Assembly: GCA_000165345.1 (NCBI GenBank)
Contig: CM000431.1
Span: forward strand, 160,001 to 224,000
Direction of reading: 5' to 3'
DNA length: 64,000 nt
The position numbers were made by a program, and so were the translations under genes. Each line of letters begins with the position of its first letter. Within the stretch, counting starts at the first letter, position 1. This document shows positions 17,010 through 17,513 of the stretch, in pieces. The notes beneath the pieces were generated by a model. The model did no database searches and was not told where the DNA came from. It saw only the letters and a list, made by a program, of their open reading frames with translations.

Positions 17010-17491
17010 TTTAAAGCTTCAAATATCACCTTTAATGAGGTGATTACTGCTCAAGATTCTCCAGTTTTCACAGTTATTACATCAATTTCGCCCAGAATAA
17101 GAAATAGTTTAAAACAAAATAAACAATTAAGCAAAATTCTACCTACATTTCACAACTCTTCTCGGAAACTGGGTGACATTTTCTCCTTGTTCACCTAACT
17201 GCTTCCTATATTACTCCACAAAATGAGTATACTGACTCCTGCTAAGTCCCAAACAAATTAACCGAGCTAAGCAAATCCAAGTTCAACAACCTAAGTCTCA
17301 CATCTTTAATAGTCCTGACAATTTTTAATTTGTAATAACAGTGTCAATTCCTTTTATCCCTGCTCTTTCTCCATACTTTCTCTCTTTCCTCCATTTCCCC
17401 CTCTTTTCTTTCTCTTTCTCCAAATATTTTCCCTCCCTGAAACCTAAAATCTCTAAGCCCGGATCTAAAAATTAGGTGGCGGATCTAACGT

Positions 17492-17513
17492 TTTGGCGGG
17501 AAATTGCATGCAA
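17492..17513 (+). promoter_or_regulatory. Composite upstream element: an E2F-like TTTGGCGGGAAA (17492-17503) immediately followed by TGCATGCA (17506-17513), 15-50 bp upstream of the start codon of the 1440-aa gene.
   Basis: A GC-rich dodecamer and a palindromic GCATGC octamer lie in AT-rich DNA. A second TGGCGG half-site is at 17476-17483. Both motif classes are known over-represented upstream elements in apicomplexans (E2F/DP and ApiAP2 targets). Confidence 0.35.

Follow-up and report, generated by a model that had tools for sequence, protein, structure and literature searches.

E2F-like motifs upstream of Cryptosporidium parvum genes were reportedly recorded early on by Bankier in 2003, alongside Mullapudi in 2007. 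The motifs catalogued by Oberstaller (2013) include Motif 4 (TTTGGCGGGAAV), the E2F-like Motif 3 (DTTGSCGCCH), and Motif 1 (BGCATGCAH; AP2_1), and 163 of 200 co-expression clusters, with 2,379 genes, have an excess of E2F-like motifs upstream (PMC3734150). E2F is also the top motif in the ATAC-seq peaks of sporozoites, more than half of which are bidirectional (Xiao et al. 2025, bioRxiv 10.1101/2025.01.17.633476). Cryptosporidium is the only apicomplexan genus known to keep E2F and DP genes (PMC3734150, PMC4117751, PMC12246861), with E2F encoded by cgd1_1560 and cgd6_1430 and DP encoded by cgd7_3650 and cgd8_1850 (bioRxiv 10.1101/2025.01.17.633476, PMC12246861), and no Rb orthologue is known in C. 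parvum (PMC3734150). The palindrome TGCATGCA of the AP2_1 class is bound on protein-binding microarrays by the AP2 domains of cgd2_3490 and cgd1_3520 (Oberstaller 2014, PMC4117751), and it is also bound by PfAP2-Sp/PF14_0633 (De Silva 2008; Oberstaller 2014, PMC4117751). The related TGCATGYR is enriched in the promoters of macrogamont genes (PMC11078545), and AP2 motifs were not found in the open chromatin of sporozoites (bioRxiv 10.1101/2025.01.17.633476).

The locus and the comparison set

We analyzed a 64 kb stretch of DNA (the window) from C. parvum chromosome 3, which surrounds gene 3g670 (G14; locus tags CPHLJ_3g670 and CHM_3g670). A first-pass annotation of the bare sequence had assigned it to Cryptosporidium and reported recurrent GC-rich E2F-like boxes, sometimes paired with GCATGCA-type palindromes; the assignment was borne out by the proteins of the window, which are identical to those of Cryptosporidium parvum Iowa II / IOWA-ATCC. 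Both kinds of motif were present in the window, and they were enriched in 5'-type intergenic DNA, conserved, and clustered with one another. The species used for comparison were C. meleagridis, C. ubiquitum, C. felis, C. muris, and chipmunk genotype I, and the statistics are those of one 64 kb window with ~18 promoters, together with orthologous, non-independent loci.

The window was partitioned into 10.76 kb of 5'-type (upstream-type) intergenic DNA, 3.24 kb of convergent (3'-3') intergenic DNA, and 50 kb of coding sequence (CDS). The GC content of the intergenic DNA was 16–36% (64–84% AT, mean ~74% AT), so its earlier description as more than 80% AT fails as a general statement. A total of 381 Ns are scattered at 24.4–26 kb and 51–52.1 kb, and the masking of motifs by these Ns was ruled out, as an N-free reference yielded the same result. 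Three 5S rRNA genes, which are invisible on an ORF-based map, contain positions 38857, 39494, and 40174, respectively.

GC-rich boxes are enriched in upstream-type intergenic DNA

The GC-rich boxes share the core [T]TGGCG(C/G)(C/G)[A]A and include the canonical TTTGGCGGGAAA. In the window, GGCGSS occurred at 18 sites (23 strand-hits vs 3.06 ± 1.98 expected from dinucleotide shuffles) and TGCATGCA in 10 copies (vs 0.34 expected), and none of the 100 dinucleotide shuffles matched the observed count of either motif. The GGCGSS cores were distributed as 16 in upstream-type intergenic DNA, two in the CDS, and none in convergent DNA; in terms of regions, a box was present in 11 of the 13 upstream-type regions vs none of the five convergent regions. 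The pentamer SSCGC occurred 36 times in 10.8 kb of upstream-type DNA, seven times in 50 kb of CDS, and never in convergent DNA, and the 7-mer TTSSCGC was found at 10 upstream sites vs one in 50 kb of CDS, whereas the full 8-mer TTTSSCGC was matched by only four upstream sites. The best matches to the E2F site were TTTGGCGGGAAA at 17492 and 35383, TTGGCGCCAAA at 4420, and TTTGGCGCC at 38443; the weaker members GGCGCGC, GCGCGCGCG, and CTGGCGGGC matched the core only.

An unbiased ranking of the 6-mers and 8-mers in 5'-type intergenic DNA placed CATGCA (24 vs 2.05 expected), GGCGGG (9 vs 0.32), GGCGCC (5 vs 0.14), TGCATGCA (6 vs 0.06), and GGCGGGAA (5 vs 0.05) at or near the top, beside poly-A runs, and the Markov expectation for an E2F-type core in upstream DNA was <1. 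Among the 36 hexamers consisting only of G and C, five E2F-type words supplied 19 of the 34 occurrences, and most of the others were overlapping shifts of the same boxes. The flanks of the boxes were unrelated, with an outer-flank identity of 28%, which is the random level for their composition, with T prevailing 5' of the core and A prevailing 3' of it, in the manner of TTTSSCGC.

The two cores in the CDS, neither of which was conserved, equalled the ~2 expected from synonymous-codon and codon-order shuffles. Active avoidance of the boxes by the CDS was therefore rejected, and the contrast reflects upstream enrichment rather than avoidance in genes. Enrichment was strong and the CDS was almost empty of boxes, the reverse of the two outcomes (no enrichment; equal frequency in the CDS) named beforehand as contrary to the interpretation. 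We also rejected the reading of two motifs in coding sequence, TGCATGCA at 53698 and CCCGCC at 53743, as a sign that the start codon of G18 had been placed too far upstream; in chipmunk genotype I and C. ubiquitum, the N-terminal signal peptide of G18 is conserved in the protein, whereas synonymous or neutral substitutions have abolished both motifs.

The AP2_1 consensus (BGCATGCAH / TGCATGYR) was fitted by the 10 exact copies of TGCATGCA and by the variants ACATGCA and TGCATGT. Nine of the 10 exact copies were intergenic, with six in 5'-type regions (0.56 per kb) and three in 3'-3' regions (0.92 per kb), so that the density in the 3'-3' regions was as high as that in the 5' regions. TGCATGCA or CATGCA was located within ~40 nt of an E2F box more often than by chance.

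Boxes mark promoter-type regions but not start codons

In terms of position, the boxes had been described as lying 30–320 bp upstream of nearly every gene. A strict core occurred within this range of the ATG in only 10 of 18 genes, whereas 16 of the 18 had a core somewhere in their (often shared) upstream regions, up to ~1.2 kb away, so the description fails in that form. No core was found in the upstream regions of G6 and G18. In tandem regions, the distance from the ATG was anywhere from 67 to 320 nt, and the window boxes kept to neither a set distance from the ATG nor a set orientation, in agreement with Mullapudi 2007 (PMC1779779). The boxes mark a region as promoter-type but do not single out a start codon, and they speak only weakly for the start-codon choices that had been based on them. 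Some boxes lie where a protein-coding promoter would not be expected, past the G8 stop codon (by 158 nt), in 5S rRNA spacers, and beside a tRNA gene.

The promoters of G6 and G18 have no E2F box but carry conserved GTGTGCA / GGTACACAC / TGTGTGTAAG blocks and a ATAGGGGCA block. The GTGTGCA/CACACA-type blocks resemble AP2_2 (GCACAC / CACACA), a catalogued C. parvum motif. Other catalogued motifs are the G-box (G.GGGG) and "unknown set 1" (GAYCTMD / HTAGVTCW), and the GAYCTMD form is fitted by GGATCTAA, which is present twice in the G8 element described below. AP2_2, the G-box, and "unknown set 1" are elements separate from the E2F-like and GCATGCA-type classes of the first-pass annotation.

Individual boxes and their conservation across Cryptosporidium

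The conservation of the boxes in sister species, which had been proposed as a check, was confirmed. The E2F-like cores were 88% identical between C. parvum and C. ubiquitum vs a background of 62%, and 75% identical in C. felis vs a background of 36%; C. ubiquitum has kept the box at 11 of 12 sites, and C. felis at six of 11. The TGCATGCA class showed 91% identity vs 62% background in C. ubiquitum, and many of the blocks that were perfect in four species were E2F-like or AP2_1 motifs. This pattern of aligned sequences indicates that the boxes are phylogenetic footprints, under purifying selection at orthologous promoters. All of the strings listed beforehand were present at or beside their coordinates, with one ~14 nt off.

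The divergent promoter of G2 (-) and G3 (+) contains a GGCGCC box at 4176–4181, 87 nt from the G2 ATG, in which GTGGCGCC is identical in C. parvum, C. meleagridis, C. ubiquitum, and C. felis. A double palindromic box (GGCGCCACATTCTTGGCGCCAA, 4406–4429) lies in the same promoter, 180–194 nt from the G3 ATG, and has GGCGCC at 4408–4413 and 4422–4427, with the cores 14 nt apart. The G1 promoter, outside the window, contains TGCATGCATGGCGCCACATATTTGGCGCCA and has the same double-box layout as G2/G3 (GGCGCCACATATTTGGCGCCA; L001 395–417). The G4/G5 divergent region carries a GGCGCG box at 8602–8607 (TTTAGGCGCG on the minus strand), in which CGCGCC is kept in four of four species, and a module at 8824–8872 (TTCCCGCCGAAA ... 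TGCATGCAC ACCGGTATT), ~220–260 nt upstream of G5, composed of an E2F-like box (TTCCCGCCGAAA, 8824–8835), an AP2_1 palindrome, and ACCGGTAT. The TCCCGCC and ATGCACACCGGTATT of this module are perfectly conserved in four species. Upstream of G7, a module at 13102–13173 (TGCATGTACCGGTATTTTTGCATGCA ... CATGCA ... GGCGGG; 320–385 nt upstream), with its GGCGGG core kept in C. meleagridis and C. ubiquitum, is followed by TGCATGCA at 13371–13378, 117 nt from the ATG, where TATGCATG is conserved in four species.

The G8 element (17461–17513, plus strand), which had been flagged beforehand, is located 50–100 nt upstream of the G8 ATG at 17562 and consists, in order, of GGATCTAAAAAT, a half-box GGCGGA with a second ATCTAA, TTTGGCGGGAAA (17492–17503), and TGCATGCA (17505–17512). 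C. meleagridis and C. ubiquitum share this block, the latter with two full GGCGGG boxes; C. felis retains GGATCTAAAAAT and a GGCGGG, and C. muris has TTTTGGCGCCGAAA 104 nt from the ATG of the G8 orthologue. Beyond the other end of G8, a GGCGCGC box (TGGCGCGCA at 22008–22016) and TGCATGCA form a module at 22009–22044 that is conserved in C. meleagridis and C. ubiquitum. Its location, 158–190 nt past the stop codon of G8 and 1.15 kb before G9, suggests the promoter of an unannotated or antisense transcript. A GGCGGG box (AGTAGGCGGGAAGT, 22566–22571, plus strand) is 116 nt upstream of a minus-strand tRNA-Glu gene and 619 nt upstream of G9; its position relative to the G9 ATG is -619 in C. parvum, -606 in C. 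meleagridis, and -601 in C. ubiquitum; the GGCGGG of C. felis, at -607, is aligned by MAFFT to a neighbouring GGCGCG. CATGCA and TTTGGCGGG (28370–28395, minus strand) are located at the centre of the 1.7 kb, 16% GC divergent region between G10 and G11, and the canonical TTTGGCGGGAAA at 35383–35394 (plus strand) is 248 nt upstream of the ATG of G12 (-).

At 38443–38452, TTTGGCGCCT precedes the ATG of G13 (-) by 195 nt and the first 5S rRNA gene by 386 nt; counted from the same end of the region, a box is found at 197 nt in chipmunk genotype I and at 166 nt in C. felis. The spacer between the first and second 5S rRNA genes contains TGCATGCA (39159–39166), and that between the second and third contains two GGCGGG boxes (39832–39915, minus strand; cores at 39834–39839 and 39910–39915), which are separated from G14 by a 5S rRNA gene. 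The divergent promoter of G15 (-) and G16 (+) has a module at 44574–44633 (ATACCGGTAT, TTTACATGCA, CCGCC, ATGGCGGGA), 276 nt from the G16 ATG, in which TACCGGT is conserved in four species and GGCGGG is kept in chipmunk genotype I and C. ubiquitum but is AGCGGG in C. felis. The G17 upstream region (49771–49840, 222–292 nt from the gene) contains GGCGCCTACATGCA (49771–49784), GAGCGCCAA (49796–49804), and GCGGGAACATGCA (49828–49840); the GGCGCC at 49771 is not conserved, whereas GCGGGAACATGCA, which had not been listed beforehand, is perfect in four species. The CCGCC listed at 44617 and the GAGCGCCAA listed at 49796 are present, but as weak, partial matches. Finally, the giant gene G19 is preceded at 180–250 nt by a module of ACATGCA, ACCAGTACCGGTATT, GCGCGCGCG (57844–57852), and ACATGCA (57814–57888), in which ACCAGTACCGGTATT is conserved in three of three species and the GCGCGC run is not conserved. 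The palindrome listed here at 57801 has a motif nearby, but the true site is ACATGCA at 57814–57820.

Two elements lie in convergent regions and thus precede no annotated gene. TGCATGCATGCA (6410–6421) is located between G3 and G4, and C. meleagridis and C. ubiquitum retain it at this place in expanded form. TGCATGCA at 25021–25028, between G9 and G10, is also found in the N-free reference; C. meleagridis and C. ubiquitum have kept it and additionally carry TACCGGT and GGCGGG there.

A ACCGGTAT element accompanies some of the modules

A third conserved element, ACCGGTAT, with the core [T/C]ACCGGT[A/T], was observed in four of the 13 promoter regions (G4/G5, G6/G7, G15/G16, and G18/G19), giving five strand-hits vs 0.27 expected. 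ACCGGT had no match in 50 kb of C. parvum CDS or in 121 kb of sister-species CDS. In all four regions, ACCGGTAT was ≤20 nt from CATGCA (p = 0.0002) and ≤60 nt from an E2F box (p = 0.0018). It is perfectly conserved in up to four species and also occurs at non-orthologous promoters in C. ubiquitum and C. muris (GCATGTACCGGTAAT). An initial count of 10 upstream occurrences of CCGGTA included three (38857, 39494, and 40174) that lie inside the 5S rRNA genes and were removed. ACCGGTAT is not among the 25 motifs of Oberstaller 2013 (PMC3734150) or in the motif table of the 2025 review (PMC12246861), and in the literature on Cryptosporidium and ApiAP2, together with the Oberstaller 2013 supplements, a search for motifs of the ACCGGT type returned only primers and unrelated matches. 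We tentatively propose, while considering it rather doubtful, that ACCGGTAT is an uncatalogued cis-element that functions only as one part of a compact composite module, beside CATGCA and close to an E2F box, to which a two-domain or heterodimeric factor could bind.

Binding factor and alternative explanations

Most probably, the boxes are promoter cis-elements already described for C. parvum, for which the literature points to E2F/DP as the binder. As had been claimed for the E2F/DP and ApiAP2 classes, they fit Motif 4, Motif 3, and AP2_1 literally, and this match, together with the dominance of E2F in the ATAC-seq data, means that the finding is correct but already known. TTTGGCGGGAAA, TTGGCGCCAA, and GGCGCGC are candidate E2F/DP-binding sequences, and the published work suggests that the boxes lie in open chromatin. 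E2F/DP heterodimers would bind the isolated GC cores in otherwise AT-rich 5' intergenic DNA, and the bound E2F/DP would mark a nucleosome-free promoter and drive transcription. In shared divergent promoters, an E2F box may often act in both directions because its core is palindromic or orientation-independent. TGCATGCA and CATGCA are AP2_1 sites, putatively for the ApiAP2 domains of cgd2_3490 and cgd1_3520, and may add stage specificity, as in macrogamont genes. Points that weigh against this explanation are the variable distance and orientation of the boxes relative to the ATG, the box-less genes G6 and G18, the boxes at places where a protein-coding promoter would not be expected, the high density of TGCATGCA in 3'-3' DNA, and the absence of AP2 motifs from the open chromatin of sporozoites.

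It is improbable that the boxes are real, conserved promoter elements bound by another factor, such as an ApiAP2 domain or a zinc-finger protein. Plant AP2/ERF proteins bind the GCC box GCCGCC, which is similar to the window boxes, and GGCGCGC, GCGCGCGCG, and CGCGCC deviate from the strict TTTSSCGC. E2F/DP binding has never been directly shown by experiment in Cryptosporidium, and most of the components are without validation (review PMC12246861), while several AP2 domains yielded no motif on protein-binding microarrays (PMC4117751). However, none of the AP2 domains that did yield a motif recognised a GC-rich box (PMC4117751), the best instances (TTTGGCGGGAAA twice, TTGGCGCCAAA, and TTTGGCGCC) match the E2F site letter for letter, the T-rich 5' and A-rich 3' flanks of the boxes fit E2F, and among apicomplexans both E2F/DP and the flood of motifs are unique to Cryptosporidium (PMC3734150, PMC4117751, PMC12246861). 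A compositional or chance artefact, in which the boxes are generic GC-rich islands or fragments of dispersed repeats, has a negligible probability. Although the motifs are short (6–8 nt) and the examples were chosen by eye in a single 64 kb window, the shuffles did not reach their counts, the unbiased k-mer ranking recovered them, their orthologous positions are conserved far above background, and convergent regions of similar composition lack boxes. A dispersed repeat or mobile-element fragment was rejected given the absence of shared sequence past the short core, as was a generic GC-rich or CpG-island composition, as only the E2F-type G/C words are enriched and not all alike; the artefact reading as a whole was refuted by the shuffles, k-mers, flanks, and conservation.

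The out-of-place elements at 6410, 25021, and 22009–22044 have a slightly less than even chance of being promoters of unannotated or antisense lncRNAs that start from the 3' ends of genes, a reading that complements the main explanation and does not replace it. The 396 lncRNAs described by Li et al. (2021) are mostly antisense and biased to mRNA 3' ends, and the top two motifs ≤100 nt upstream of them are E2F/DP1 and AP2_1 (PMC7840661). The elements are conserved in C. meleagridis and C. ubiquitum, the latter having a full module at the G9/G10 site, complete with TACCGGT and GGCGGG. On the other hand, species differ in the copy number of the (TGCA)n run at 6410, which could instead be a palindrome of microsatellite type or an element of 3' ends or chromatin, and no convincing unannotated ORF was found when the convergent region between G9 and G10 (1.2 kb; 24277–25445) was searched.

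Comparison with known systems

E2F/DP-type regulation is the main known difference in transcriptional control between Cryptosporidium and the other apicomplexans, so the locus-by-locus confirmation of its putative sites is useful, although it changes nothing conceptually. A 64 kb window and a few sister-species loci sufficed to footprint the boxes. The analysis supplies testable promoter elements (the 50-nt G8 module and the G2/G3 double box) and flags exceptions, namely the box-less genes, the boxes in the spacers of Pol III genes, the 3'-3' elements, and the ACCGGTAT co-motif. To the published motifs it adds footprints at the level of single loci over 5–6 Cryptosporidium species and the observations that boxes are missing from 3'-3' regions and occur in the spacers of the 5S rRNA genes.

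Compared with the described E2F-like upstream motifs of C. parvum (PMC3734150), the window boxes show the same consensus, including two sites that are literally TTTGGCGGGAAA, the same upstream non-coding location, often with several per promoter and at most genes, and the same occurrence in either orientation with no fixed distance from the ATG; nothing essential is different. The AP2_1 copies of TGCATGCA are likewise the identical palindrome, over-represented in non-coding DNA and conserved between species, but differ in that they are not confined to 5' regions (three in 3.2 kb of 3'-3' DNA) and are significantly clustered with E2F boxes and ACCGGTAT. With the canonical eukaryotic E2F/DP site TTTSSCGC (Zheng et al. 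1999, as cited in PMC3734150), the window boxes share the symmetric CGCGCG-like core between a T-run and an A-run, the proximity to promoters, and the function in both orientations that would be expected of such sites. However, whereas the E2F/DP sites of animals and plants are mainly associated with cell-cycle and DNA-replication genes under the control of Rb-family pocket proteins, the putative E2F boxes of the window are located upstream of most genes, including those encoding transporters, a cathepsin, and secreted giant proteins.

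Enrichment and specificity of the GC-rich boxes

The GC-rich E2F-like core GGCGSS gave 23 strand-hits at 18 sites in the window, against 3.06 ± 1.98 expected from dinucleotide shuffles, and the palindrome TGCATGCA was observed 10 times against 0.34 expected by chance. All of the strings listed in the first-pass annotation were found; only the palindrome placed at 57801 was mislocated, the actual ACATGCA lying at 57814–57820. When all 6-mers and 8-mers of the 5′-type intergenic DNA (13 divergent or tandem regions, 10.76 kb in total) were ranked under a first-order Markov model, E2F and AP2 words emerged at or near the top without any prior, alongside poly-A runs: CATGCA (24 vs 2.05 expected), GGCGGG (9 vs 0.32), GGCGCC (5 vs 0.14), TGCATGCA (6 vs 0.06), and GGCGGGAA (5 vs 0.05). 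Five E2F-type words accounted for 19 of the 34 upstream occurrences of all-G/C hexamers (36 words), and most of the other occurrences were overlapping shifts of the same boxes; the enrichment is motif-specific. The immediate flanks were T-rich 5′ of the core and A-rich 3′ of it, resembling TTTSSCGC. The outer flanks were 28% identical, the random level, which rules out an origin of the boxes as repeat fragments.

The motifs were not equally common in coding sequence: 16 cores lay in 5′-type DNA and 2 in the 50 kb of CDS, with none in the five convergent 3′–3′ regions (3.24 kb in total), and the looser pentamer SSCGC was distributed similarly (36, 7, and 0, respectively). Because the 2 coding cores equal the approximately 2 expected from synonymous-codon and codon-order shuffles, the contrast reflects upstream enrichment, not avoidance in genes. 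Neither these two cores nor the single coding TGCATGCA was conserved in sister species, though the encoded protein was.

Gene map and position of the boxes

The proteins of C. parvum Iowa II, IOWA-ATCC, and other isolates were identical to the window translations, and the window corresponds to about 163–227 kb of CP044420.1 (a 1.10 Mb chromosome). It was assigned to chromosome 3 because gene G14 (40540–42288) corresponds to locus tags CPHLJ_3g670 and CHM_3g670. The 19-gene map (G1–G19) combines ORFs with the gene calls of public assemblies; four Pol III genes, invisible to the ORF map, were added by Rfam and ARAGORN. A total of 381 N bases are scattered over two stretches: 24457–25999, which takes in the convergent region between G9 and G10 plus the 3′ part of G10, and 51000–52123, which covers the G17 repeat region. 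They explain the apparent frame break in G10 (25529–26776 / 26754–27701) and the varying length of G17 (1045 amino acids here vs 1036, 1056, and 1076 in assemblies), and the motif picture at both stretches was unchanged in an N-free reference.

The boxes had been described as lying 30–320 bp upstream of nearly every gene, in intergenic DNA of more than 80% AT. A strict core was located 30–320 nt from the ATG in 10 of 18 genes but not in the other 8, and somewhere in the (often shared) upstream region, up to about 1.2 kb, in 16 of 18; the base composition was overstated, since intergenic GC ranged from 16 to 36% (64–84% AT) and AT did not exceed 80% throughout. No box was found upstream of G6 or G18, which instead carry GTGTGCA / GGTACACAC / TGTGTGTAAG blocks conserved in three to four species: GTGTGCA / GTGTACATTTGTGTG at 10493–10563 for G6, and TGGTACACAC ... 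ATAGGGGCAATT ... TGTGTGTAAG at 53389–53448 for G18, together with a conserved G-box-like ATAGGGGCA. These blocks correspond to the published AP2_2 (CACACA-type) and G-box classes. In tandem regions, boxes occurred anywhere from the upstream stop codon to the ATG, 67 to 320 nt from the latter, a spread that does not discriminate candidate start codons, so that the proposed support for start-codon choices is weak.

At least one box was present in each of the five divergent regions, as would be expected of promoters acting in both directions; published ATAC-seq data class more than half of their peaks as bidirectional (bioRxiv 10.1101/2025.01.17.633476). The genes G2 (2614–4089, minus strand, 491 amino acids) and G3 (4602–6083, plus strand, 493 amino acids), each with a weak MFS_1 (major facilitator transporter) Pfam match, are arranged head-to-head, and their common 512-nt promoter holds three GGCGCC palindromes. 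E2F and CATGCA motifs were grouped in compact modules: of 17 E2F boxes, 7 had a CATGCA no more than 40 nt away, where permutations averaged 2.06 (p = 0.0008). The density of TGCATGCA in 3′–3′ regions (three copies: 6410/6414 and 25021) was no lower than that in 5′ regions.

Conservation across Cryptosporidium

Gene order was fully conserved among the syntenic loci of C. meleagridis, Cryptosporidium chipmunk genotype I, C. ubiquitum, C. felis, and C. muris. The boxes were also conserved in sister species. When C. parvum motif columns were compared with all remaining intergenic columns in MAFFT alignments of ten 5′-type regions, identity at the E2F core was 88% in C. ubiquitum (background 62%) and 75% in C. 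felis (background 36%), and that at CATGCA was 91% and 54%, respectively, against the same backgrounds. Of the individual boxes, C. ubiquitum kept 11 of 12 and C. felis 6 of 11, and many of the blocks perfectly conserved in four species were E2F/AP2 motifs. The promoter of G1, outside the window, carries TGCATGCATGGCGCCACATATTTGGCGCCA, with a double-box layout as at 4408–4427.

Upstream of G8 (ATG at 17562), the block GGATCTAAAAAT...GGCGG(G)ATCTAA...TTTTGGCGGG...TGCATGCAA was conserved in C. meleagridis and C. ubiquitum and partly in C. felis, and a perfect TTTTGGCGCCGAAA was located 104 nt from the ATG of the G8 orthologue in C. muris. Its GGATCTAAAAAT segment was conserved in four species. 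Just 5′ of the G8 E2F box, GGATCTAA occurs twice in 17461–17491, 21 nt apart, and a conserved CTAGATC (8615–8621) lies beside the box at 8602; both match the motifs GAYCTMD / HTAGVTCW, published as 'unknown set 1'.

Elements outside mRNA promoters

Some elements occurred where no mRNA promoter is expected, namely at 6410, at 25021, and in a module at 22009–22044 just past the G8 stop codon. Antisense lncRNAs start at gene 3′ ends, and the motifs that rank highest upstream of them are E2F and AP2_1 (PMC7840661), a pattern that these elements may fit. The TGCATGCATGCA run at 6410–6421, in the G3/G4 3′–3′ region, is a (TGCA)n tract whose copy number varies among species (three units in C. parvum, six in C. 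meleagridis, and a split tract in C. ubiquitum; see also L015:3323–3346, a locus outside the window).

A tRNA-Glu(CTC) gene (22378–22450, minus strand) is located midway through the 1.3 kb G8–G9 region, and 87–121 nt upstream of it (22537–22571) are a GGCGGG box and the block TTTTACTACCTCT, which is conserved in four species. That box may serve G9, the tRNA gene, or some other transcript. The 2.3 kb 'intergenic' G13–G14 region holds three 5S rRNA genes (38832–38951, plus strand; 39405–39524 and 40085–40204, minus strand) within 180–220 nt repeats, a cluster conserved as three copies in C. felis and five in chipmunk genotype I. Most spacers separating consecutive minus-strand 5S genes contain an E2F-like box, in four of them 140–175 nt past the 3′ end of a 5S gene; no box was found from the last 5S gene to the G14 ATG.

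A candidate third element

The motif ACCGGTAT (core TACCGGTA) gave 5 strand-hits in the window against 0.27 expected, at four promoters (8864–8871, 13109–13116, 44574–44583, and 57827–57834), and was found outside it at L017:21496, L019:21909, and L022:9704. CATGCA was at most 20 nt away in four of four cases (p = 0.0002), and an E2F box at most 60 nt away in every window case (p = 0.0018). The motif was identical in as many as four species and also occurred at non-orthologous promoters of C. ubiquitum and C. muris. ACCGGT was absent from CDS (50 kb in C. parvum and 121 kb in sister species, about 170 kb) and was found 11 times in the 34 kb of intergenic DNA from sister species. ACCGGTAT is absent from the 25 motifs of Oberstaller et al. 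2013 (PMC3734150) and from a 2025 review table (PMC12246861), and searches of the accessible literature returned no mention of it. As a conserved third promoter element it is a lead, not a result, because just about 18 promoters were examined.

Comparison with known regulatory motifs

Apart from the start-codon claim, the interpretation of the motifs as E2F and ApiAP2 classes needs no revision. The boxes fit Motif 4 (TTTGGCGGGAAV) and Motif 3 (DTTGSCGCCH) of Oberstaller et al. 2013 (PMC3734150), and TGCATGCA is the AP2_1 site, to which the cgd2_3490 and cgd1_3520 AP2 domains bind in vitro (PMC4117751) and which is enriched upstream of macrogamont genes (PMC11078545). Presence, specific enrichment, localization, conservation, and clustering were observed here; protein binding at the boxes and open chromatin are inferred from the literature, in which E2F is the dominant motif of sporozoite open chromatin (bioRxiv 10.1101/2025.01.17.633476). 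Of the possible readings, the published one, with the GC boxes as E2F/DP-type sites, has the strongest support. Among apicomplexans, only the genus Cryptosporidium has, as far as known, retained E2F and DP genes (PMC4117751, PMC12246861). The observation is correct but not new: Motifs 3 and 4 show over-representation in the upstream regions of 163 out of 200 expression clusters, comprising 2,379 genes (PMC3734150).
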